A DNA stretch of 36,067 nt from Bacilli bacterium (GCA_007117285.1 SKGW01000013.1:1-36067), one strand, 5' to 3'. Positions 14,994-26,335 are shown, numbered from the stretch's first letter. Made by a program: numbers and translations. The notes: generated by a model from the letters alone, not told the origin.

Positions 14994-17900
14994 ATGATAA
15001 ATGGAACACGTAACAAAATAAAAAATTTAAAAGAGAAAAGAAAAAAGTCCTTAAGGGGCTTTTCTTTGGTGGAACTGTTGGGAGTGATTATACTTTTAAC
15101 AGTTATATTTATGATTGCAACACCAATCGTTTTAAATGTAGTTGAAGATGCTAGAAAATCAGCATTTGCATCAACTGTTTCTTCATTAGTGAAGATCACA
15201 GAAAATGATTGTTTGCAAAGTAGAATTTTTGGGGAGCCAGAAGATCACTATATAGTGTTTGAAAATGGTCAGCAAGAAGGCGAAAAAATAAGTTTTTCCG
15301 GTAGAGCACCGGAAACAGGAACTATTTATGTAACAACGGATTGTAAAGTTGCTTATACACTTCACGATGGGAATTGGTGTGCAGTTAAAACTTTTGAATC
15401 GGCTAATGCTGAAACACACAAAATTTCACCAGAACAGTGTAATTTTGAATACTTTGGAATTTCTACTACAGAGGGAATATTTGAATTAATTGCATTAGGG
15501 TATTTACCAATTTCAAGTATTGAAGATTTACAAGCAATAGGTCAGGGTGAGGCTGATAGAATATGGGGCGAAAGCTCAAGGTTTTCAGTTCAGGGAACTG
15601 GAACAATGACTTCAAATTATGTTATTGTGCAGAACCTAGATTTAACAAGCGTTAATTTTGAACCAATCGGATATCAAATCGGCAACGGTTATGATAGTTT
15701 TGAAGGAATCATAAACGGATATAATCACACATTATCTAATGGAGATATTGATTTTTTAGGTGACAACTATATTGGTGGATTAGTTGCTTATCTTGGAAAT
15801 AACGGCATTATTAGAAACATTAACTTAGAAGATTACTATGTTAGAGGGAACTTAAACGTAGGAGGAATAGCAGGGTTAAATAATGGTGTCATCCAAAATG
15901 CATCATTTACTTTAACAGTAGAAGGAACCGACAATGTTGGTGGAATAGCAGGGAATAACCAAGGTGATATATTTAATAGTGAAGTTACTTCAGTTTTAAT
16001 TGGTGAAAATCAATCATTTGGAAATGATATTGGATTAATATGCGGAGCAGGAACGTGTCCGCTAGTGACAAATGGAAACACAGCTGTTGGTGATATCATT
16101 TATAATTTTTATGATATAGTATTTAATGCAAACGGTGGAGCATTTACAACTATTGAGGGGAACCCAGTAACTGTAACTTCAACAGTGGCAAGAAATACAG
16201 TAACCTCAGAACCAGAAATACCAACGAGACAACATTATGAATTCTTGTGGTGGTTAGATGGAGCAACGCCGTATAATTTTTCAAATTTAGTTACAAGCGG
16301 AAAGACACTTCAAGCACATTGGGGTGTTACACTAGAAATATCAGCACCATTTGAACCAACATGGACTGTTTTAGCAACGAGTATAACAGCAGACATTTCA
16401 CTAGTTGCAAATGCAGATCAATATCGCATTAAACAAACAAGTGAAACAGAATGGTCAGAGTGGGCGGGTAATAATGTATTTACTAATTTACTACCATATA
16501 CTGAATATGACTTTCAAGCTCGTTCTCTAGATCCTTCAGTTTTGGGGAGTATCGCAACATATAGAACTCCAAAATTGGATAATGATGTTCCGGAATTTAC
16601 AGGAACAATAAACTGGACAATTCAAGTAGGAAACGTTACTGCAGAAGTTCCAAATGTTGGAGTAGGTGCAGAATACCGTGTTAATGGCGGAAGCTGGCAG
16701 ACGGGAAGAACATTTTCGTCATTAAATCCAAATGTTGAATATACATTTGAGGCAAGAATGGCGGAAACAGGAACGCACAATGCATCATTAGTTTCAAGTC
16801 CAATTATAGAAACAAGTCCAAAAGCCAATCAAACAATTGGAACTTTAGGAAGTCCATCATGGACAGTTCAAGAAGGAACAGTAACGGCAAGCTTACCTGC
16901 ATTAACAGGAGCAACTCACTATCGAGTTAATGGTGGAACATGGCAGACAGGAACAACATTTGCATCATTAAGCCCAGTAGTTGAATACACGTTTGAAGCA
17001 AGAAAAGCAGAAACAGCAACATTGAATGAAGTAATAAGTAATTCCGTTGCATCAACAAGTCCAAAAGCAAACCAAGCAGCACCAGCGCAACCATCATCAT
17101 CAAACTTACTGTTTGATAGAGTAACAATAACAGGAGCTGCAGGAACACAAGTAAGACAAGGTGTTGCAGGAACTGGATATAACACACCATACACATTTAC
17201 AGGACTGACACAAAATACATCATATAGTTTTTATGCATTCAGACCAGCAACAGCGACACTAAATGCCTCACCAAACAGTGTGGCAAGAACAGTAACAACA
17301 CCATTGCAAGTAGTAGCACCAGGTTTACCAGGAGCATTTACAAGTCCATCAGGAACATTGTTTAGAAATCAAACAGTAACAGTAACATGGGGAGGAACAG
17401 GTTCATGGGGAGTTCCAACATCAGGTCAGAATTATCGATTAGAAATTCAATATGATGCAGGAGCATGGAACTTAGTAGCTAATAATGGAACTTCAACAAC
17501 AAGAAGCCATACACTTGCAAGTGCGGGAAACTCAGTAAGATTTAGAGTAAGAGCAGAAAATTCAAGTGCTCAATCAGATTGGAGATATTCAAGTACATTA
17601 ACATTAACGTCTCCAGCTTGGGTGCTTACAACAGATAACTATCCATCAACACATTATTCAGGGTGTGATACAAGAAAAAATAGACTTCAAATAGGTTCGA
17701 GTTGGGTATACGGAGTTGGAACAATAGCAACTACTCCTGATGGCTGTTCAAACGCAAGTGGAGTTACAATATGGAGCGGTGACTTTCACTTATATGAATG
17801 GCGTGTTACTTTCTTAAGTGGTCCAGATACTTCAGTATGGGGATCAAATGCAACACTAAGAGCAGAATGGCCTTATACACTTCTTTATGGATATGATCCT

Positions 17901-18035
17901 CAGTTTACAAGTGCCGGACAGTCCTTCATATTTGACTCTGCAAGACACATAACTGGTTCACAATGGATCTTTGCTCCAGAAGAAACTTATGGAACGTCAT
18001 ATTTAAGAGTTGAACGAAGATTAAAAGTAAATTGA
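14994..18035 (+). CDS. Modular type IV pilin-like surface protein (prepilin signal and pilin head, GLUG-like beta-helix, Listeria-Bacteroides repeat, five Fn3-like modules, orphan C-terminal domain)
   Basis: An AGAGGTGA RBS precedes the start. The 22-aa basic leader ends in G, followed by FSLVELLGVIILLTVIFMIATP (class III signal, with E5 and P22 in mature numbering). GG[IL][AV]G repeats are spaced 26-29 aa apart. DIVFNANGG...HYEFLWW...LQAHW fits a Flg_new-type repeat. Repeated WT(V/I)..G.VTA...YRVNGG.WQTG..F..L.P.VEYTFEAR modules follow. Confidence 0.85.
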   Translation: MINGTRNKIKNLKEKRKKSLRGFSLVELLGVIILLTVIFMIATPIVLNVVEDARKSAFASTVSSLVKITENDCLQSRIFGEPEDHYIVFENGQQEGEKISFSGRAPETGTIYVTTDCKVAYTLHDGNWCAVKTFESANAETHKISPEQCNFEYFGISTTEGIFELIALGYLPISSIEDLQAIGQGEADRIWGESSRFSVQGTGTMTSNYVIVQNLDLTSVNFEPIGYQIGNGYDSFEGIINGYNHTLSNGDIDFLGDNYIGGLVAYLGNNGIIRNINLEDYYVRGNLNVGGIAGLNNGVIQNASFTLTVEGTDNVGGIAGNNQGDIFNSEVTSVLIGENQSFGNDIGLICGAGTCPLVTNGNTAVGDIIYNFYDIVFNANGGAFTTIEGNPVTVTSTVARNTVTSEPEIPTRQHYEFLWWLDGATPYNFSNLVTSGKTLQAHWGVTLEISAPFEPTWTVLATSITADISLVANADQYRIKQTSETEWSEWAGNNVFTNLLPYTEYDFQARSLDPSVLGSIATYRTPKLDNDVPEFTGTINWTIQVGNVTAEVPNVGVGAEYRVNGGSWQTGRTFSSLNPNVEYTFEARMAETGTHNASLVSSPIIETSPKANQTIGTLGSPSWTVQEGTVTASLPALTGATHYRVNGGTWQTGTTFASLSPVVEYTFEARKAETATLNEVISNSVASTSPKANQAAPAQPSSSNLLFDRVTITGAAGTQVRQGVAGTGYNTPYTFTGLTQNTSYSFYAFRPATATLNASPNSVARTVTTPLQVVAPGLPGAFTSPSGTLFRNQTVTVTWGGTGSWGVPTSGQNYRLEIQYDAGAWNLVANNGTSTTRSHTLASAGNSVRFRVRAENSSAQSDWRYSSTLTLTSPAWVLTTDNYPSTHYSGCDTRKNRLQIGSSWVYGVGTIATTPDGCSNASGVTIWSGDFHLYEWRVTFLSGPDTSVWGSNATLRAEWPYTLLYGYDPQFTSAGQSFIFDSARHITGSQWIFAPEETYGTSYLRVERRLKVN
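16608..17075 (+). repeat. Tandem imperfect direct repeat (two ~225-nt units with a ~246-nt period) encoding adjacent Fn3-like modules
   Basis: Unit A is 16608-16832 and unit B is 16854-17075. Both encode ...WT(I/V)Q.G.VTA..P....GA.YRVNGG.WQTG.TF.SL.P.VEYTFEAR.AET.T.N....S....TSPKANQ. Confidence 0.85.
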
Positions 18036-18060
18036 CAAATTTAAATCATTTTGTTAAAAT
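18032..18060 (+). promoter_or_regulatory. Near-consensus sigma-A promoter driving the T-box leader and proC
   Basis: TTGACA (18032-18037, overlapping the mega-pilin TGA stop), a 17-nt spacer containing TGt, then TAAAAT (18055-18060). Confidence 0.6.
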
Positions 18061-18066
18061 TAATGA

Positions 18067-18316
18067 AATCAAAAAGCATTGATCGAGAATTATTACAAAA
18101 TAATTAGCAATTAAGAGAAAGAATCAAATAGGTGAAAGATTCTATTGTGAAAATTTGGAACCTCTCTCGCTAGCTGCAAGCGAAAGCTTAGCCGTATCCA
18201 GTAACGTTACAAACTGGCTGATATCGCTTTTTGCCGTATCGGAAAAAGATAATTCATTTGAATTAACAAAGGTGGTACCGCGAACTTCGCCCTTTAATTA
18301 GGGTGGAGTTTTTTTA
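18067..18316 (+). promoter_or_regulatory. T-box riboswitch leader with a probable proline (CCU) specifier
   Basis: Stem I distal motifs are AGAGA (18114-18118) and GGTGAAAG (18131-18138). GAA-CCT lies at 18158-18163. An F-box-like CGTTA sits in the hairpin CCAGT..ACTGG. The T-box sequence is AAAGGTGGTACCGCG (18268-18282). The canonical antiterminator has helix A1 AAAGG/CCTTT, a 7-nt bulge TGGTACC and helix A2 GCGA/TCGC. The competing terminator pairs 18286-18293 with 18300-18307 and is followed by a T7 run. Confidence 0.85.
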
Positions 18317-18330
18317 TTGGAGGAGATTAT

Positions 18331-19176
18331 ATGAAAAAAATAGGGTTTATAGGAGTAGGAAATATGGCGGAGGCTATGATTGACGGAATGCTTCAATCAG
18401 GAGAGTTTTCGTCAGAACAAATATTAGTAACAAATAAGAATAATTCAGAGAGGTTAAAAAAAATTCAAACAAAATTCAATGTTGAATACTTTTCAAAAAA
18501 GAAACTTGTTGAAAAAAGTGATGTTTTAATAATTGCTGTCAAACCACAAGATTTAAAAGATGTGTTATTAAATATCAAAAATTTTATTAAAAAAGATATT
18601 TTAATTATCTCGGTTGTTGCCGGAGTTGACATTGAAAGTATTATTAATTATCTCGGTAAAAAGTTACCAATAATTAGAGCGATGCCAAATACATCAGCGC
18701 GCGTTAATTATTCAGCAACAGCTATGGCGGTGTCTAAAAATATCAAAGATGAAGAAGTGGGAATGGCACATAAAATTTTATCATGTGTTGGAACTGTTCA
18801 TCTTGTTGAAGAAAATAACTTAGATGCAGTGACTGGATTAAGCGGAAGCGGGCCTGCTTATGTATATTCGTTTATCAATGCAATGATAAAAGGTGGGGAA
18901 GAACAAGGGCTTTCACATGAATTATCAGAGAAACTGGCATTTCAAACTCTAAGAGGAGCTCTTGAGATGATTACTGTTACAGGTAGTGAAATAGATGAAC
19001 TGATAGTGCAAATTTGTTCGCCAAACGGAACAACTGTAGCTGGTCTAGGTGTTTTAAAAGAAACTTTTTTTGAAGATAATATAAAAAAAGCAATATCAAC
19101 AGCAACAAACAGATCAAAACAACTTTGCTTTGAAAATAAAGTTGGAATAATAACTCCTCAAAAAACTTGCCAATAA
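18331..19176 (+). CDS. proC: Pyrroline-5-carboxylate reductase
   Basis: IGFIGVGNMAEAM NAD(P)-binding motif plus RAMPNT, GSGPAY and SPNGTT motifs. Confidence 0.93.
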   Translation: MKKIGFIGVGNMAEAMIDGMLQSGEFSSEQILVTNKNNSERLKKIQTKFNVEYFSKKKLVEKSDVLIIAVKPQDLKDVLLNIKNFIKKDILIISVVAGVDIESIINYLGKKLPIIRAMPNTSARVNYSATAMAVSKNIKDEEVGMAHKILSCVGTVHLVEENNLDAVTGLSGSGPAYVYSFINAMIKGGEEQGLSHELSEKLAFQTLRGALEMITVTGSEIDELIVQICSPNGTTVAGLGVLKETFFEDNIKKAISTATNRSKQLCFENKVGIITPQKTCQ

Positions 19177-19195
19177 TTACTTTAATAGTTATAAT
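19167..19195 (+). promoter_or_regulatory. Internal promoter for gpsA, embedded in the 3' end of proC
   Basis: TTGCCA (19167-19172), a 17-nt spacer, then TATAAT (19190-19195). Confidence 0.5.
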
Positions 19196-19212
19196 TAATG
19201 TGGAGGTATATT

Positions 19213-20187
19213 ATGAAAATAGCAATTATTGGAACAGGAGCATATGGCATTGCTATGAGCTTGATGTTAAATGAAAACAACAAAAATATTGTAATGTATA
19301 CGAAGTTTGAAGAAGAATTAAAAACTTTGAGAAAATATAGGGCAAATCCAGCTTTACTTCCTGGAGTTAAAATACCTGGGAATATAACTTTTACAAACGA
19401 CATGAAAGAATGTGTAGAGAACAGTGACATTATTTTTATAATGGTTCCTGCTGGCTTTGTTGATGACGTAAGCAGAGAGTTGGCGAATTACTATAATAAA
19501 CAAATAATTTGTATCGGCTCAAAAGGAATAGAACAAGATACGTGTTTGTTTGTTGCAGATGTTGTCAGAAAATACATAGAAACAGATAAAATAGCGGTAC
19601 TATCTGGACCATCTTTTGCAATTGATATGGCAAGTTATGTACCAATTGGTCTGACATTGGCAACTGAGAACAAAAAGATTGGAAAAATTGTGAAAAAATC
19701 ACTTGAAAATAATTATTTAAAAATTCGTGTTTGTGATGACATTGTTGGAACTGAAATTTGTGGTTCAATTAAAAATATTATTGCAATTGCTTCTGGAATA
19801 ATAGAAGGACTTGATCTTCCAGAATCAACTAGAGCTATGTTATTAACTGAATCAATGCACGATATAAAAGAATTGATAAATGTATTAGGCGGAAATAAAA
19901 AAACAATTTTATCATATGCTGGAATTGGTGATTTAATATTAACTTGTAGTAGTGATAAAAGTAGAAACTATACTTTTGGAAAAATGTTGGGCGAGAGAAA
20001 AAGTAAATCAGAAATCGAAAAATACCTTTCCGAAACTACAGTAGAAGGTTTTTACACATTAAAATCTATATATAATTTGCTTAGAAACAAAAAGGTTAAA
20101 ATGCCTATTATTGATTTAATGTATGATATAATAATACACGGAGAAGATGTCGATAAATTAAAAAAATTCTTAGTTGAAAAAGAATAG
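19213..20187 (+). CDS. gpsA: NAD(P)H-dependent glycerol-3-phosphate dehydrogenase
   Basis: ATG 19213 follows a TGGAGG RBS. MKIAIIGTGAYG Rossmann motif, plus GPSFA and GSIKNIIAIA motifs. Confidence 0.92.
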   Translation: MKIAIIGTGAYGIAMSLMLNENNKNIVMYTKFEEELKTLRKYRANPALLPGVKIPGNITFTNDMKECVENSDIIFIMVPAGFVDDVSRELANYYNKQIICIGSKGIEQDTCLFVADVVRKYIETDKIAVLSGPSFAIDMASYVPIGLTLATENKKIGKIVKKSLENNYLKIRVCDDIVGTEICGSIKNIIAIASGIIEGLDLPESTRAMLLTESMHDIKELINVLGGNKKTILSYAGIGDLILTCSSDKSRNYTFGKMLGERKSKSEIEKYLSETTVEGFYTLKSIYNLLRNKKVKMPIIDLMYDIIIHGEDVDKLKKFLVEKE

Positions 20188-20220
20188 AAAAATTATGATA
20201 TAATTGGTAGAGGTGAATTT

Positions 20221-20643
20221 ATGAAAGTAGTAATAATAGAAAATGATGAAAAAAGATTAAACAAATTTATTGATTGGGCGATTCACATGATTGGGTATGC
20301 AATTGTATTAATTGCCGTATCCCTGCTATTTAAAAACACATTAATTATCGATGCTGAATTATTTGGCTTTTGGGGTCTTATAGCAGCAATAATTATTTAT
20401 GTTTTAAATCAAACATTAAAGCCAATATTGGTGTTTTTAACGCTGCCGATAACAGCTGTAACACTTGGGCTTTTCTATCCATTTATAAATGTTTTTATAT
20501 TAAACATGGTTGACTTTTTAATGAGGGACAAGTTTATAATTGATGGACTTTTTAATAGTTTTTTTGTAGCAATTTTAATATCTCTTATGAATATTTTCAT
20601 GAGAGAACTTGTAATAAAACCATTATTAGAAAAGAGGCGATAA
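20221..20643 (+). CDS. YvlD/DUF360-type small membrane protein (family annotated as 'phage holin family 4')
   Basis: 140 aa with 4 predicted TM helices. The LKPILVFLTLPITAVTLGLFYPFINVFIL core is typical of the family. A TGaTATAAT extended -10 lies at 20195-20203. Confidence 0.6.
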   Translation: MKVVIIENDEKRLNKFIDWAIHMIGYAIVLIAVSLLFKNTLIIDAELFGFWGLIAAIIIYVLNQTLKPILVFLTLPITAVTLGLFYPFINVFILNMVDFLMRDKFIIDGLFNSFFVAILISLMNIFMRELVIKPLLEKRR

Positions 20644-20644
20644 T

Positions 20645-21499
20645 ATGAATCCTGTTTTAATCGACTTACAATTTATGAAAATTTACTGGTATTCTTTATT
20701 TGTAATGCTAGCTTTTTTGGTTGGTGGTTACATCGCAATGAGAGAGGCCCGAAAAAATTCAATTGATGATGATTATATGATTAATTTTATTTTCTTTTTA
20801 GTTCCAATCGCACTACTAGGAGCAAGAATTTATTATATAATTTTTAATTGGTCTTATTATCAAAGTGATTTAATTGGAGCTCTAAAAGTTTGGGAAGGCG
20901 GACTTGCCATTCATGGAGGAATAATTTTCGGATTTTTATGGTTGTTATTTTACACTAGAAATACTGGAGTTAGAACTCTTAGATTTTTAGACATAGTTGC
21001 ACCTGCAGTTTTAATAGGTCAGGCGATTGGAAGATGGGGTAATTTCTTTAACCAGGAGGCCTACGGTGCTATAACAACTGCTGAAAAACTTCAAAGCTTC
21101 TTCATTCCTGATTTCATAATTGAAGGAATGCTTATAGATGGCCAATACCATCATCCTACATTTCTATATGAGTTTCTTTGGTGTGTATTAGGTTTTATAA
21201 TAATACTTCTTGTTAGACGTTTTTCTAAGTATTTAAAAGTGGGACAGCTAACAAGTTTGTTTTTGCTTTGGTATGGAACAGGTCGCTACTTTATAGAAGG
21301 TTTGAGAACGGATAGTTTGATGTTTGGATCAATTAGAGTTGCTCAGGCATTCTCGTTGGTAATGATTTTTATAGGAATAACAATGTATTTTTACTTAAAA
21401 AGAGGATCTCGTTTTGACGATTTATATGCAATGGAAGACAAAACGGTGGACCGAGTTAATAAATTGCTTGACAACGACACGGAGGGTGATGCTGAATGA
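20645..21499 (+). CDS. lgt: Prolipoprotein diacylglyceryl transferase
   Basis: GLAIHGGIIFG and GRWGNFFNQEAYG signature motifs. Confidence 0.94.
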   Translation: MNPVLIDLQFMKIYWYSLFVMLAFLVGGYIAMREARKNSIDDDYMINFIFFLVPIALLGARIYYIIFNWSYYQSDLIGALKVWEGGLAIHGGIIFGFLWLLFYTRNTGVRTLRFLDIVAPAVLIGQAIGRWGNFFNQEAYGAITTAEKLQSFFIPDFIIEGMLIDGQYHHPTFLYEFLWCVLGFIIILLVRRFSKYLKVGQLTSLFLLWYGTGRYFIEGLRTDSLMFGSIRVAQAFSLVMIFIGITMYFYLKRGSRFDDLYAMEDKTVDRVNKLLDNDTEGDAE

Positions 21500-22404
21500 G
21501 AAAAACTGACTGTGTTGTAATCGGTGCTGGAATAGCAGGAATGACAGCTGCTATTTATTTAAAAAGATCTAATGTTGATTGTGTTATTGTTGAAAAATCA
21601 GCTCCAGGTGGAGTTATGAACAGAACTAGTCAAATTGATAATTATCCGGGCTATACAGAATCTGATGGTGTCAATTTAGCTATGAATGTCTATAAACAAA
21701 TAACTGATTTAGAAGTACCTTATGTTTTTGGAGCAGTTTCAAAAATCGAATTAGTTGGAAATAAAAAAATTGTCAAAACAGATTCTGAAGATATTGAAAC
21801 AAAGACCATTATTATCGCTTCTGGAAGAGTTCCAAGGGAATTAGGTCTAGAACACGAGAAAGCGCTTTCTGGCCGAGGAATAAGCTGGTGTGCCATCTGT
21901 GACGGTGCTTTTTACAAAGATAAGGAAGTCGCAATCGTTGGCGGAGGAAATGGTGCTTTTGAAGAAGCTGTTTATTTAGCGTCAATTGCATCAAAGGTAT
22001 ACATGATTTATGATTCAAAAAGAGTAAGAGCAGATAAAATACTACAAGATAAAGTTGAAAGTTTAAAAAATGTTGAAGCTGTTCGAGACAATCCGATAAA
22101 AGAACTTATAAATGAAAACAACAAACTGGGTGGTCTAATTTTAGAAGATGGAAGAAAACTGGATGTTGAAGGTTTATTTATTTTTATAGGATACGACCCA
22201 TTACTTGTTTGTGTTAAAGAATTAGATATTGAAAGAGATAGTAACTATTTAGTTGTTGACAAACAAATGAGAACAAGCGTTAAAGGAATTTATGCATGTG
22301 GAGACGTTATTAAAAAAGATGTTTATCAATTAACAACAGCAGTAGGTGAGGCATCAATTGCTGCAACTTTTGTTAAAAAAGAATTAGACATGGAAAAAGT
22401 GTAG
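21496..22404 (+). CDS. trxB: Thioredoxin-disulfide reductase
   Basis: VIGAGIAGMTAA FAD-binding motif, redox CAICDG, a second GGGNGAFEEA dinucleotide fold, and GIYACGDV. Confidence 0.93.
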   Translation: MRKTDCVVIGAGIAGMTAAIYLKRSNVDCVIVEKSAPGGVMNRTSQIDNYPGYTESDGVNLAMNVYKQITDLEVPYVFGAVSKIELVGNKKIVKTDSEDIETKTIIIASGRVPRELGLEHEKALSGRGISWCAICDGAFYKDKEVAIVGGGNGAFEEAVYLASIASKVYMIYDSKRVRADKILQDKVESLKNVEAVRDNPIKELINENNKLGGLILEDGRKLDVEGLFIFIGYDPLLVCVKELDIERDSNYLVVDKQMRTSVKGIYACGDVIKKDVYQLTTAVGEASIAATFVKKELDMEKV

Positions 22405-22423
22405 AGATTAATCTACACTTTTA
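22398..22423. terminator. Bidirectional terminator between convergent trxB and the P-II-like gene
   Basis: AGTGTAGA-GATTAA-TCTACACT hairpin (8 bp), flanked by an A-run upstream and a T-run downstream. Confidence 0.75.
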
Positions 22424-23068
22424 ATTTGATCTTTTCATTCCATAAGTATTAGTTACTGATTGAACAAATAGAATTCCATTTCCTGGTTTTTCAATTTCTA
22501 AGTCTTCGGTAATTGCTTTGACTATATTATCTGTTATTTCGCTCTCTGCTAATATTAAAACAACTTCTTTTTCGGGCTCAATTTCCATTGAAAACAACTT
22601 GCTAGTTTCGTGTATTCCAGATCCTCGAGCATTAATAATGGTTCCGCCTTTAGATCCGGCTTTGTTAGCTGAATCAACAACATCAACGGCACGACCTTTA
22701 TCGACAACAACATAAATACAATTAAACATACTTTCCACCTCTACTTTATTATCTGGGTTAGATTTGTTTTTAGAACCGGTAAAATAATTTATACTTGAAG
22801 AAAAGCCAATTCCATTTTGTTTTTCTTTTAATTTTAATTTTTCTTCTATAAAGGGCATTGTAGCATTGGAAATTCTATCCTCTGCAACCATTAAAACTAT
22901 TTCTTTCCTAGTATCACATATACCAAGTACATCTAAAAGTTTGTCATCAACTGTACCTTTACCAAGGAAAATAGTTCCGCCAGTAACTCCCTTTTTTTTG
23001 GCTAATTTTAAAACTTTGCTTCCGATTCCAAAGTCTACTATAACAACCATTAAGCTCAGATTAGTCAT
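22421..23068 (-). CDS. Tandem P-II-like signal-transduction protein (two fused P-II-fold domains)
   Basis: 215 aa. Both halves (about 5-95 and 118-210) follow the beta-alpha-beta / loop / beta-alpha-beta pattern. The second half, IYVVVDKGRAVDVV...GGTIINARGSG...VVLILAE...GNGILFVQSV, aligns with GlnB-type P-II. Its start overlaps the upstream stop in a TAATG junction. Confidence 0.7.
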   Translation of the reverse strand: MTNLSLMVVIVDFGIGSKVLKLAKKKGVTGGTIFLGKGTVDDKLLDVLGICDTRKEIVLMVAEDRISNATMPFIEEKLKLKEKQNGIGFSSSINYFTGSKNKSNPDNKVEVESMFNCIYVVVDKGRAVDVVDSANKAGSKGGTIINARGSGIHETSKLFSMEIEPEKEVVLILAESEITDNIVKAITEDLEIEKPGNGILFVQSVTNTYGMKRSN

Positions 23069-24522
23069 TAAACACCCTCCTTTTTGGATTTTAGTTTAAA
23101 CATGATACCTAATATTTGTAGCGTTATGATAGGAACTAATGCAACGAGTGCAATCATTCCAAATCCATCAGATAAAACAGTTGCTCCTTCAGTTGCTGTT
23201 GCAACACCGTGCATAAACGCTAGAATAAATGTCGCTGTCATTGGACCAGAGGCAACACCACCTGAATCAAATGCAATTCCAACAAATAGATTTGGTGTGA
23301 AAAGCATTAACAAAATTGCAATGCCGTATCCAGGTAGTAAAAACAACCATAAATCTAATTGATATTTAATTTTAATGATTGAAAGAACAATTGCCAGACC
23401 AACACCAATTGCTAGAGATGCAATTACGAATTTCCTTTTTATGTACCCAGCTGTGACCTCTTCAATTTGTTTAGTTAAAACGTATACTGCGGGCTCTGCA
23501 AGAATTGTTGTCATTCCTAATATAAAACATAAGAACAATATTAGAGTAAAATTTTTGTTAGCAAGAGTATGCCCAATTTCTCTTCCGACTTCAAGAAAAC
23601 CAGAGTTAACACCAACTAAGAAAAATATCATTCCAATAAAAGTATACAAAAGACCTTTCTGAATTATTTTCAACTGTCTTCCTTCAAATTTAAAGGAAGT
23701 TTTGTTGAATAATATAAATATTAATAGTATTGGGAGAAGTGCTAAAACTACTTCGCTTGTTATTGATTTTACAATATTAAAAAAACTCAAACTTTCATTT
23801 GCACCCATGTTTTCCAATGGTATAAAGTTACCTTTTGAAATATTGACTAGCAACATTATTATTATGACGCCTGCTGAAACTATTCCAACTAAACCAAAAC
23901 TATCTTTTGCGGAGTCAGTACTGTTTTTATTTAGTTTAGCAATACCTAGAGTTAGAGCTAAGATAAAAGGAACCGCCATCGCTCCTGTTGTGGCTCCTGA
24001 TGTATCAAATGCAATTCCCATCAATTTGTTTGGTGAGAGTGCTGCCAGTAATAAAATTATTGTGTATAAAATCAACATTGTCTTTTTTAATGAAAAATTC
24101 TTAACAATTCTCGTAAGACCATAAGAGAATGAAAGACCAATTCCAATTGATGCTACCACAATAATCATAATATTATTAATAAAACCGTTTGAAAAATAAT
24201 CAATTTGCTTTGCAATTATGTGTAGGTCTGGTTCGGCAACTGAAATGAAAAATCCAAGGAAAAATCCACCAATAATAACAATCCACATTTTATTTTTTTT
24301 CGCTAGGTTTTCACCCATTATATTTCCAATTGGAGATATTGAAAGATCAACACCTAATAAAAATATTGCAAGGCCAAGAATTGTGAGTGCAGATCCAGTT
24401 ATAAACTTAAGTAATAAATCGTTTGATAAAGGCGCAATTGTTAAATGTAACATTAAAACTAGCAATACAACAGGTGCAACGGCAAAAACGACTTCTTTTA
24501 TTTTATGTAACAATATTTTCAA
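23068..24522 (-). CDS. Internally duplicated polytopic membrane protein, DUF1538-like putative transporter
   Basis: 484 aa with a TTG start after a GGGGG RBS. The two halves share motifs: ...ISVAEPDLHIIAKQI / ...TILAEPAVYVLTKQIE and IAFDTSGATTGAMAVPFILAL / IAFDSGGVASGPMTATFILAF. The DUF1538 assignment is from memory of the family and its usual P-II neighbour. Confidence 0.6.
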   Translation of the reverse strand: MKILLHKIKEVVFAVAPVVLLVLMLHLTIAPLSNDLLLKFITGSALTILGLAIFLLGVDLSISPIGNIMGENLAKKNKMWIVIIGGFFLGFFISVAEPDLHIIAKQIDYFSNGFINNIMIIVVASIGIGLSFSYGLTRIVKNFSLKKTMLILYTIILLLAALSPNKLMGIAFDTSGATTGAMAVPFILALTLGIAKLNKNSTDSAKDSFGLVGIVSAGVIIIMLLVNISKGNFIPLENMGANESLSFFNIVKSITSEVVLALLPILLIFILFNKTSFKFEGRQLKIIQKGLLYTFIGMIFFLVGVNSGFLEVGREIGHTLANKNFTLILFLCFILGMTTILAEPAVYVLTKQIEEVTAGYIKRKFVIASLAIGVGLAIVLSIIKIKYQLDLWLFLLPGYGIAILLMLFTPNLFVGIAFDSGGVASGPMTATFILAFMHGVATATEGATVLSDGFGMIALVALVPIITLQILGIMFKLKSKKEGV

Positions 24523-24548
24523 GGTTACGCCCCCTTTATCATATGTAA

Positions 24549-24578
24549 ATTATACCACGAGGAGCTGTTTAAAAACAA
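24549..24578 (-). promoter_or_regulatory. Candidate promoter of the DUF1538-like / P-II operon
   Basis: On the minus strand: TTGTTT, an 18-nt spacer, then TGgTATAAT. The leader to the TTG start is about 25 nt. Confidence 0.4.
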
Positions 24579-24608
24579 CAATCAATATGTAAATAAGACA
24601 TTTATCAA

Positions 24609-24637
24609 TTGACTATGAAAAGTTGTTGTGATATATT
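24609..24637 (+). promoter_or_regulatory. Promoter of pilin paralog 1
   Basis: TTGACT (24609-24614), a 17-nt spacer ending in TGa, then TATATT (24632-24637). The conserved 5'UTR GTAAGATAAGGAGGG follows. Confidence 0.6.
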
Positions 24638-24663
24638 GTTATTGTAAGATAAGGAGGGTAATT

Positions 24664-25158
24664 ATGAATAAGAAAGGTTTTACACTAATCGAACTATTGG
24701 CGGTAATCGTTGTACTAGCAATCATCTTATTAATAGCAATGCCAATCGTACTTAATGTTATTAATGATGCAAGACAAGGTGCTTTTGATGCAACTGCACA
24801 AGGTATGGTTAAAGCAGCTGAAAATGAATATATGAGAGGTGCCTTAGACAACAGCGTTGAAGAAAAGTGGTATGAATTTGCAGGTGGAGTTCAAACTGTT
24901 TATGTTTGCGAAACTGAAGCTTGCCTTAACAGTATCGTGGATGCTGGTGCTGACAAATTAAACTTCTCAGGTCAAGGACCGGATACAGGAACAATTTATG
25001 TTGCTGCAGATGGAGAGATCGGAATGTTTATAAGTGATGGAACATATTGCTCACAAAAAGAAGTTGGAAAAAACACTACTGTTGCAACAACACAAGCAGA
25101 ATGTCCGACATCAGGAGAACCGGGATCATTATACTATGACGTTGTTAGACCACAGTAA
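24664..25158 (+). CDS. Type IV pilin-like protein, paralog 1 (prepilin-type N-terminal cleavage/methylation motif)
   Basis: MNKKG|FTLIELLAVIVVLAIILLIAMPIV (E5 and P22) with an AAGGAGGG RBS. The head motif is FSGQGPDTGTIYVAADGEIGMFISDGTYC. The ORF-track start at 24628 is a UTR read-through. Confidence 0.88.
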   Translation: MNKKGFTLIELLAVIVVLAIILLIAMPIVLNVINDARQGAFDATAQGMVKAAENEYMRGALDNSVEEKWYEFAGGVQTVYVCETEACLNSIVDAGADKLNFSGQGPDTGTIYVAADGEIGMFISDGTYCSQKEVGKNTTVATTQAECPTSGEPGSLYYDVVRPQ

Positions 25159-25165
25159 AACTAAA

Positions 25166-25188
25166 GGAAGATTTTCTTCCTTTTTTTT
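25166..25188 (+). terminator. Rho-independent terminator of pilin 1
   Basis: GGAAGA-TTT-TCTTCC hairpin followed by a T8 run. Confidence 0.75.
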
Positions 25189-25218
25189 GTCCACTTGTAA
25201 AGAAAATCACTTTGCATA

Positions 25219-25248
25219 TTGACTGATTAAACATTAACATGATATATT
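25219..25248 (+). promoter_or_regulatory. Promoter of pilin paralog 2
   Basis: TTGACT (25219-25224), an 18-nt spacer with TGa, then TATATT (25243-25248). The same GTAAGATAAGGAGGG UTR follows. Confidence 0.6.
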
Positions 25249-25274
25249 TAAACAGTAAGATAAGGAGGGAAATT

Positions 25275-25736
25275 ATGAATAAGAAAGGTTTTACATTAAT
25301 TGAGCTATTGGCGGTAATCGTTGTATTAGCAATTATCCTATTAATAGCAATGCCAATTGTACTTAATGTTATTAATGATGCTAGACAAGGTGCTTTCAAT
25401 TCAACGGGTTATGGATTGGTGAAAGCAGCAGAGAACGAGCACATGAGAACAGCACTTGAAGGCGGAACAATAATGGAAACGACATATAACTTCGCAGGTG
25501 ATGTTTCAGCATTAGACTTTTCAGGAGAAGCACCAACTCACGGAACAATCTTTGTTGCAGTAGATGGAACAATTGAAATGGCCGTTACAAATGGAGCTTT
25601 CTGTGCTGTAAAAGAATCTGATTCAACTGAAGTAAAAACATATACTTGGTCTGAATTGCAAGCAGAAGCAGCATATACAGCAGTAGCCATTAATAACATA
25701 ACTACCGATTGTAACGTTGCAACATTAATGCCATAA
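25275..25736 (+). CDS. Type IV pilin-like protein, paralog 2
   Basis: Its first 40 aa are identical to paralog 1 (MNKKGFTLIELLAVIVVLAIILLIAMPIVLNVINDARQGAF). It has FSGEAPTHGTIFVAVDGT...NGAFCAVK and a C-terminal CNVATL, which could form a Cys pair. Confidence 0.88.
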   Translation: MNKKGFTLIELLAVIVVLAIILLIAMPIVLNVINDARQGAFNSTGYGLVKAAENEHMRTALEGGTIMETTYNFAGDVSALDFSGEAPTHGTIFVAVDGTIEMAVTNGAFCAVKESDSTEVKTYTWSELQAEAAYTAVAINNITTDCNVATLMP

Positions 25737-25742
25737 CACTAA

Positions 25743-25765
25743 ACAGAATTTAATTCTGTTTTTTT
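25743..25765 (+). terminator. Rho-independent terminator of pilin 2
   Basis: ACAGAAT-TTA-ATTCTGT hairpin followed by a T-run. Confidence 0.8.
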
Positions 25766-25810
25766 CTTGTCATTAAAGAGACAAAAAGAAATTAAAAATA
25801 TTGACTATAT

Positions 25811-25840
25811 ATTATTTGTTGTGTTATATTAATATTGTAA
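25811..25840 (+). promoter_or_regulatory. Promoter of pilin paralog 3
   Basis: TTGACT (25811-25816), an 18-nt spacer with TGt, then TATATT (25835-25840). The same GTAAGATAAGGAGGG UTR follows. Confidence 0.6.
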
Positions 25841-25858
25841 GATAAGGAGGGGAAGAAA

Positions 25859-26335
25859 ATGAATAAGAGAGGTTTTACATTAATTGAATTATTAGCAGTA
25901 ATCGTCGTATTAGCAATCATCTTATTAATAGCAATGCCAATTGTACTAAGTGTTATTAATGATGCTAGAGAAGGAGCTTTCAATTCAACAGGTTATGGAT
26001 TGGTGAAAGCAGCTGAGAATGAGCACATGAGAAATGCACTTGATGGTGGAGTTATGGCAACTCAAACTTACACTTTTAATGAAGCTGGTGATGGTACCGG
26101 TAACACTTTGCTGGACTTTTCAGGAGAAGCACCAACTAGTGGATCAATAGTTGTTGAAGTTGATGGAACTACATACATGGCTATTTCAAATGGAGCATTT
26201 TGTGCAGTTAAAGCATATAACTCGACAGAAGTTATTACTTATGATGGAGATGGACTTAATGAAGCTTTTACAGAAGCTACAAACGGAATAGCTCATTGTA
26301 ACGTGGCTACTTTAACAAGCTTAGCAACACCATAA
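25859..26335 (+). CDS. Type IV pilin-like protein, paralog 3
   Basis: MNKRG|FTLIELLAVIVVLAIILLIAMPIVLSVINDAREGAF N-terminus. It has FSGEAPTSGSIVVEVDGT...NGAFCAVK and CNVATL motifs. Confidence 0.88.
   Translation: MNKRGFTLIELLAVIVVLAIILLIAMPIVLSVINDAREGAFNSTGYGLVKAAENEHMRNALDGGVMATQTYTFNEAGDGTGNTLLDFSGEAPTSGSIVVEVDGTTYMAISNGAFCAVKAYNSTEVITYDGDGLNEAFTEATNGIAHCNVATLTSLATP

Follow-up and report, generated by a model that had tools for sequence, protein, structure and literature searches.

How are type IV pilins assembled when no assembly gene lies anywhere near the genes that encode them? This question is raised by contig SKGW01000013.1 of the Bacilli assembly GCA_007117285.1, analysed here over its whole length of 36,067 nucleotides (hereafter the window). 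The contig (C55 in our numbering) belongs to the metagenome-assembled genome (MAG) of an uncultured low-GC bacterium labelled Bacilli or 'Mollicutes' (769 kb in 84 contigs, approximately 95% complete; designated G000). It carries one gene for a pilin of 1013 aa and, separated from it by housekeeping genes, three genes for small pilins of 153 to 164 aa, and all four open reading frames (ORFs) exist as the initial annotation had described them. That annotation also noted that the window is devoid of assembly genes, and a domain profile search of the contigs of the genome agrees, with zero T2SSE, T2SSF or Peptidase_A24 matches on C55. It left open either a machinery encoded remotely or a use of these proteins not covered by known operon models. 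Our results favour the former: the four proteins most probably belong to an ordinary type IV pilus (T4P), in which they would be polymerised by PilB, PilC and PilD encoded elsewhere in the genome, the large protein being a modular adhesive minor pilin. We give this reading a probability of roughly 0.75.

The first element of this answer is that the four proteins indeed constitute one family. All of them possess a class III signal of the form K/R-G|F-[ST]-L-[IV]-E-L-L, with a glycine at -1, a phenylalanine at +1, a glutamate at +5 and a hydrophobic alpha1N segment. The small pilins match N_methyl/TIGR02532 with 31-33 bits (cut-offs of 21.2 and 16.3); the N_methyl-type match of the large pilin (16.9 bits) is under the cut-off, and its motif was recognised by eye. 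Within alpha1, the small pilins agree with one another at 44-50 of 52 residues. The helix continuation DAR..AF ... VK..EN is present in the four proteins, and the head motif FSG..P..G[TS]I.V..D[GC]...[DN]G.[YFW]C[AS].K occurs, according to a regular-expression search of the whole genome, in exactly these four genes (nt 15294-15389, 24964-25059, 25518-25613 and 26117-26212). The similarity is not a mere consequence of the conserved N-terminus, as the beta-heads match far beyond chance even when the entire alpha1 helix is removed: BLASTP between the large and small heads yields E-values of 2e-11 to 6e-9, and Smith-Waterman scores are 83-99, versus a mean of 25-26 after shuffling (sd about 4.6, z 13-16). 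A hidden Markov model (HMM) of the head also matches the large pilin at 15141-15452 with an E-value of 7e-41. What did not hold is the restriction of the family to four members, as the genome contains at least 11 canonical members (on C9, C15, C16, C33, C39, C46, C80 and in the window) and 14 matches to the head HMM.

The initial annotation had itself named an outcome that would reduce its proposal to ordinary biology, namely a shared motif that is simply the generic pseudopilin fold, in genes that are scattered paralogues of a standard comG operon located elsewhere. The biology does appear ordinary and the machinery is elsewhere, but the motif is not the generic one and, as detailed below, the machinery is not a standard comG operon. 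In Pfam and NCBIfam, only the N-terminal methylation motif is seen; the head has no model in either database. A full-length profile matches solved pilins over alpha1 only (best match: PilE1 of Streptococcus sanguinis, E 6.5e-9), while a profile restricted to the head retrieves no solved structure among PDB sequences, save a chance match to eL24 at E 1.2. The GspG model TIGR01710 likewise matches the window pilins over the N-terminal helix only, with 15-25 bits for a cut-off of 88.85. In the AlphaFold2 (AF2) model of small pilin 3 (predicted local distance difference test, pLDDT, of 85.7), an alpha1 helix spanning residues 8-61 (54 residues) is followed by five short beta strands, an order that would fit the lollipop shape of pilins. 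Cys115 and Cys147 of this protein could form a disulfide pair in the model; the pilin module of the large pilin has four cysteines, at residues 73, 117, 129 and 149.

The second element is the assembly machinery, for which remote encoding is borne out: a gene for a PilB-type ATPase is found on C14, and genes for a PilC-type platform protein and the prepilin peptidase PilD are adjacent on C3. Comparison of NCBIfam models assigns the ATPase to PilB/GspE (480-483 bits) rather than ComGA (263 bits, cut-off 300), and the platform protein to PilC/GspF (273 bits) rather than ComGB (132 bits, cut-off 240). The predicted machine is of the PilB/PilC type and split over two loci, and is not a standard comG system. 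Divergent to pilB lie two genes for minor-pilin-like proteins (168 and 420 aa), both of which have Glu5. PilB is widespread: among 121 genomes sampled from the same order, 117 possess a PilB orthologue, nearly always in single copy and with 57-85% identity. The locus order rpoD-(pilC-pilD)-pilB, followed in divergent orientation by minor pilin-minor pilin-...-mutS, is conserved in relatives. The pilC and pilD genes are located between rpoD and pilB in three of them, but neither in G000, where they are on C3, nor in its closest relative, G033. The PilC protein has a Lys-rich N-terminal extension of about 440 aa with transmembrane (TM) segments ahead of both T2SSF domains, which is conserved from about residue 230 onward (approximately 50% identity in relatives). 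Speculatively, this extension may stand in for undetected PilM, PilN and PilO proteins. A PilM_2 match on C70 was rejected as a PilM candidate, the protein being FtsA (218.8 bits, cut-off 175.85).

So small a machine may also bring to mind a Com pilus, or a pseudopilus resembling that of type II secretion systems, whose main job would be to take up DNA as a source of nucleotides for an organism with a reduced genome, and in which the small pilins would be ComGC-like subunits. The set of ATPase, platform protein and peptidase is indeed a minimal, Com-like one, PilT, PilM, PilN and PilO being undetected in this draft genome (which, at about 95% completeness, does not prove their absence), and a gene for the ComEC channel is present on C11. 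The small pilins do match the ComGC model, but with 26-30 bits for a cut-off of 75 and over the N-terminal helix only; the ATPase and platform scores given above favour PilB/GspE and PilC/GspF and remain below the ComGA and ComGB cut-offs. DprA was not found, with the same reservation as to genome completeness, and about 21 pilin-like genes, many of them with adhesin-type modules, go beyond what a Com pilus needs. We consider a DNA-uptake function for these pilins unlikely.

The size and composition of the head family provide the third element. When the head profile was searched against 1.84 billion cluster representatives (full HMMER search), 1,642 proteins were retrieved with E-values up to 1e-3, of which 506 reach 1e-10 or better; a word-based search that started from the small pilin 3 head returned three proteins only and had understated the family. 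Among the 149 best-scoring sequences, a canonical G|F...E signal is located shortly before the head in 124. About ten of these 149 have an alanine instead of a glycine at -1 (e.g. KKAFTLIELL), which is unusual for substrates of prepilin peptidases. The median length of the 149 sequences is 406 aa and, since 82% of them exceed 200 aa, the head is predicted to be mainly a carrier module for modular pilins of a known kind. Five of the 149 were rejected as members (P0007 and P0008, which are top HMM matches, as well as P0055, P0089 and P0140). These are giant cadherin/VCBS-type repeat proteins that match positions 43-73 of the head profile only, 11 to 21 times each (L.F.G..P.NG.V.V..DG), and this local likeness between the head motif and a beta-hairpin repeat looks like convergence or very distant relatedness.

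In G000 itself, there are 21 pilin-like ORFs with a GFxxxE signal, which amount to 9,119 aa and 3.6% of the genome. Those outside the family belong to different head families, such as a five-member family on C9, C39, C59 and C68. Conversely, two paralogues of the head lack a class III signal. In the first one (C13:3110-4639), the head follows an ordinary N-terminal TM anchor and precedes a GLUG-type module; in the second one (C46:14301-16058), the head is close to those of small pilins 2 and 3 and terminates an acidic protein of 586 aa with a TM anchor.

These two paralogues, the predominance of large proteins among the 149 best-scoring family representatives and the failure to detect a retraction ATPase in the genome would be expected if the large members especially were not polymerised at all, the class III signal and head forming instead a membrane anchor that is processed and exposes binding modules on the cell surface, as in the archaeal bindosome. 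Against this reading, Glu5 and alpha1N, which are needed for polymerisation, are strictly kept in the alignment (the A2 column of residue E10 of small pilin 3 is invariant), and a conserved PilB/PilC pair is maintained almost throughout the order. A fibre could be formed by the small members, which have strong promoters, and characterised modular pilins do enter filaments (PMC8179133). An anchor function without polymerisation is in our view improbable.

The family is much less widespread than the machinery. In the phylogenetic profile proposed by the initial annotation, which was run on the 121 genomes, the head family is present in only 17 genomes, representing 14 of 74 genera. Of the 22 genomes in which PilB shares at least 69% identity with that of G000, 14 possess the family, as against one of about 95 more distant PilB-positive genomes; these counts are descriptive and not a statistical test, as the genomes are related. 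The head family thus marks a subclade. The highest copy number is observed in G033 (0.8 Mb), in which 27 head copies include tandem small copies beside many large ones. In a collection of species representatives, members of the family come from gut, digester and sediment MAGs that bear the label Mollicutes, Tenericutes or Bacilli.

Does the arrangement of the four genes in the window carry any meaning? The initial annotation had seen a link between the large and small pilin genes across 6.6 kb of housekeeping genes. This could not be upheld, because no head-family pilin follows rplQ or precedes ligA in the relatives G009, G022 and G002; the spacing of the pilin genes in the window is incidental. 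As to the distance from the machinery, none of the 80 related loci retrieved from the species representatives with a full N-terminal alignment has pilB, pilC or pilD within 8 kb of the head-family pilin, so that a scattered, unlinked arrangement is the norm for this family. Unlinked pilin genes are also common among type IV pilins in general, pilE of Neisseria being an example. That the window would point to a new kind of system, relying on an unknown machinery or a use outside known models, is very improbable: although the window lacks assembly genes over 36 kb and neither Pfam nor NCBIfam has a model for the head, the genome does encode a PilB, PilC and PilD set that is conserved across the order, and unlinked pilin genes are the rule.

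If the proteins form an ordinary T4P, what would each of them do? Every small pilin gene has its own near-consensus extended -10 promoter-like site (10/12) and an AGGAGG ribosome-binding site (RBS); from the positions of these signals, we take translation of the small genes to start at the ATG of MNK(K/R)G and not where the longer ORFs begin. The large gene, located directly 3' of rpoA-rplQ, has an RBS (GAGGTG) before its ATG and a weak promoter-like site, with a small hairpin and T-run after the rplQ stop; these weak promoter signals would fit a low expression. Its leader comprises 22 aa and ends in glycine (residue 22 being G-1), followed by F+1 and E+5. Given the strong promoters and RBSs of the small genes versus the weak signals of the large one, and the non-pilin modules of the latter, it is plausible that the fibre is built of the products of the small genes, with the product of the large gene as a minor or tip subunit.

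We propose the following sequence of events. PilD would cleave the leaders after the glycine, and the PilB ATPase and the long PilC would then assemble a fibre from the small pilins; like that of PilE1 and PilE2 in S. sanguinis, this fibre may be a heteropolymer. The two minor-pilin-like proteins encoded beside pilB may prime this polymerisation. The three tandem, individually promoted small genes would supply the fibre-forming major subunit or subunits, while the 1013-aa pilin would enter the fibre at low frequency. Its pilin module would act as a handle for the display of the GLUG, Listeria-Bacteroides-repeat and Fn3-like modules and of the orphan C-terminal one, whose most likely function is adhesion.

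Several observations weigh against this interpretation. A Foldseek search of the PDB with the model of small pilin 3 gave no significant pilin match (best E 0.89), and the evidence for a pilin fold of the head consists of the predicted order of secondary-structure elements and the alpha1 match. Neither a second ATPase of the PilB/PilT type nor PilN or PilO was detected in the approximately 95% complete genome, and the predicted machine, with PilT, PilM, PilN and PilO undetected, is more minimal than characterised monoderm T4P. Finally, the two paralogues without a class III signal imply that the function of the head does not depend on a pilin context.

Table 1. Pilin genes, protein modules and expression signals in the window (positions in the 36,067-nucleotide contig), and assembly genes on other contigs of the same genome (contig:positions)
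Feature	Position	Strand	Basis
Large modular type IV pilin gene, 1013 aa	14994-18035	+	Translation; Pfam matches N_methyl, GLUG, Flg_new, fn3
Pilin module of large pilin (alpha1 helix and beta-head)	15060-15473	+	Alignments A1 and A2; head HMM
Head motif of large pilin, FSGRAPETGTIYVTTDCKVAYTLHDGNWCAVK	15294-15389	+	Regular-expression match
GLUG-containing middle module, aa 161-372	15474-16109	+	Pfam GLUG at aa 285-309; tblastn
Listeria-Bacteroides repeat (Flg_new) module, aa 373-442	16110-16319	+	Pfam PF09479, 28.5 bits (cut-off 27)
Fn3-like module array	16329-17573	+	Weak fn3 match; internal DNA repeat; resembles C65 pilin
Orphan C-terminal domain, ~153 aa, predicted all-beta	17574-18032	+	Homologue search without matches
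Promoter-like site of small pilin 1, TTGACT-17-TG-TATATT	24609-24637	+	Sequence scan
Small pilin 1, 164 aa, start codon ATG 24664, leader MNKKG	24664-25158	+	N_methyl, 31 bits; head HMM, E 3.5e-35
Intrinsic-terminator-like hairpin 3' of small pilin 1	25163-25183	+	Sequence scan
Promoter-like site of small pilin 2, TTGACT-18-TG-TATATT	25219-25248	+	Sequence scan
Small pilin 2, 153 aa, start codon ATG 25275, leader MNKKG	25275-25736	+	Head HMM, E 3.9e-36
Promoter-like site of small pilin 3, TTGACT-18-TG-TATATT	25801-25830	+	Sequence scan
Small pilin 3, 158 aa, start codon ATG 25859, leader MNKRG	25859-26335	+	Translation; AF2 model
PilB-type ATPase	C14:2957-4366		T2SSE, 412 bits; PilB/GspE models, 480-483 bits
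PilC-type platform protein, 845 aa	C3:5467-8004	-	Two T2SSF domains
Prepilin peptidase PilD	C3:4674-5456		Peptidase_A24, 56 bits; next after pilC

The large protein is a modular pilin in the sense of Raynaud et al. (2021; PMC8179133), as GLUG (23.2 bits, cut-off 20.5) and Flg_new modules, both above their Pfam cut-offs, follow the pilin module. The GLUG module is shared with other pilin-like proteins of the genome, encoded on C68 (tblastn, 35% over 201 aa), C16 and C13, the C68 pilin belonging to a different head family, and the Fn3 modules are found again in a pilin encoded on C65. These recurrences indicate a shuffling of cargo modules among pilin handles. Within the Fn3-like array, a DNA repeat (16674-16835 versus 16920-17078, 74% identity) indicates a recent module duplication. 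No homologue of the C-terminal domain was found, including in the genome and the fetched loci; the AF2 model computed from its sequence alone has a pLDDT of 49 and is not reliable.

The genes located between the large and small pilin genes are proC, gpsA, lgt, trxB and a P-II/DUF1538 pair, as previously annotated, together with a gene for a 4-TM holin-like protein. A near-consensus promoter (TTGACA-17-TAAAAT, 11/12) lies over the stop codon of the large pilin gene (region 18032-18316), and a strong terminator-like hairpin (18282-18311) is located upstream of proC; together, they are compatible with a T-box leader.

The genome also encodes a second type 4 filament system. It is of the Tad/Flp type, divided by contig ends between C45:1-3063 and C10:3-1129, and comprises a CpaF-like ATPase, a CpaE/ParA-like protein, two small Flp/TadE-like proteins and TadB/C-like proteins. 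A diversity-generating retroelement (DGR) is located in the C29:184-2515 region, with a reverse transcriptase at C29:1535-2515 and a template repeat at C29:1430-1613. In the variable repeats at C29:184-368 and C51:3474-3658, 23 of 26 and 20 of 25 mismatches, respectively, fall at template adenines. The targets are lectin tips of the Fib_succ_major type, both strong ones being cut by contig ends. An older, diverged copy of the lectin tip (C9:5142-5326) terminates C9_3605, a pilin of the second family, and the same kind of tip terminates P0012 and P0019, two members of the head family from other genomes. The window pilins were rejected as DGR targets, none of them having a repeat resembling the template.

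As modular and major pilins have the same head and alpha1 design in this clade of ultrasmall Bacilli, it is conceivable that modular pilins are incorporated along the whole fibre instead of at its tip only. A single minimal PilB/PilC/PilD machine would then serve to display dozens of adhesin modules that can replace one another, including some diversified by a DGR, and would be the main organ of a surface-attached or episymbiotic life similar to that of Saccharibacteria but independently evolved in Bacillota. We regard this extension of the T4P model as tentative and rather doubtful.

These results remove a false lead, in that the window pilins are not orphans but have a machinery that is present and conserved. 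They also define an unannotated family of pilin modules, with about 1,600 cluster representatives, which appears to be mainly a handle for large adhesin-like cargo and is strongly expanded (14 to 27 copies) in sub-megabase genomes of an uncultured Bacilli lineage. A model of this family would improve the annotation of such MAGs, and its expansion suggests that attachment to surfaces is one of the main investments made by organisms so reduced.

Among known systems, the closest is the T4P of S. sanguinis. Modular pilins were surveyed by Raynaud et al. (2021; PMC8179133), who report more than 1,200 proteins in 264 architectures, with an extreme of 860 aa; the S. sanguinis examples are PilB, with a vWA module, and PilC, with a lectin module, which accompany the major pilins PilE1 and PilE2. 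The pilus made of the latter two is described as a heteropolymer in a structural study (PMC10628169). The two systems have in common a monoderm-type setting, a class III signal with a short leader, tandem paralogues of small major pilins and minor pilins with non-pilin modules grafted on a small pilin module, and PilE1 is the best sequence match of the window pilins among solved structures. They differ in that S. sanguinis has all its pil genes in one locus, including pilT and pilMNO, whereas here pilin genes are scattered, the machine occupies two loci and PilT and PilMNO are undetected. Moreover, the beta-head of the window pilins has no detectable sequence similarity to PilE1, the large pilin, with 1013 aa and several modules, exceeds the 860-aa extreme of the survey, and the repertoire is much larger, with about 21 pilin-like genes covering 3.6% of a 769-kb genome.

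The Com pilus (ComGA, ComGB, ComC and ComGC-GG) offers a second point of comparison: it too is a minimal set of ATPase, platform protein, peptidase and pilins in low-GC Bacilli, without PilT or PilMNO (none detected here) and accompanied by ComEC. Unlike in the Com pilus, the ComGA, ComGB and ComGC equivalog cut-offs are missed here and the genome lacks a comG operon; DprA was not found, and many pilins carry adhesin-like cargo. Saccharibacteria, ultrasmall episymbionts with expanded type IV pilin repertoires (PMC9894109, PMC11623550), likewise keep a T4P machine and several pilins in a very small genome, and their pili are thought to mediate attachment. The present genome, however, is that of a member of the Bacilli and not of the Patescibacteria, its pilins have another head family, and episymbiosis is only hypothetical here. 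The design, a modular T4P, is thus a known one; what sets this case apart from S. sanguinis is an undescribed head family, the scattering of pilin genes together with a split machine, undetected PilT and PilMNO, and a repertoire that is unusually large for the size of the genome.

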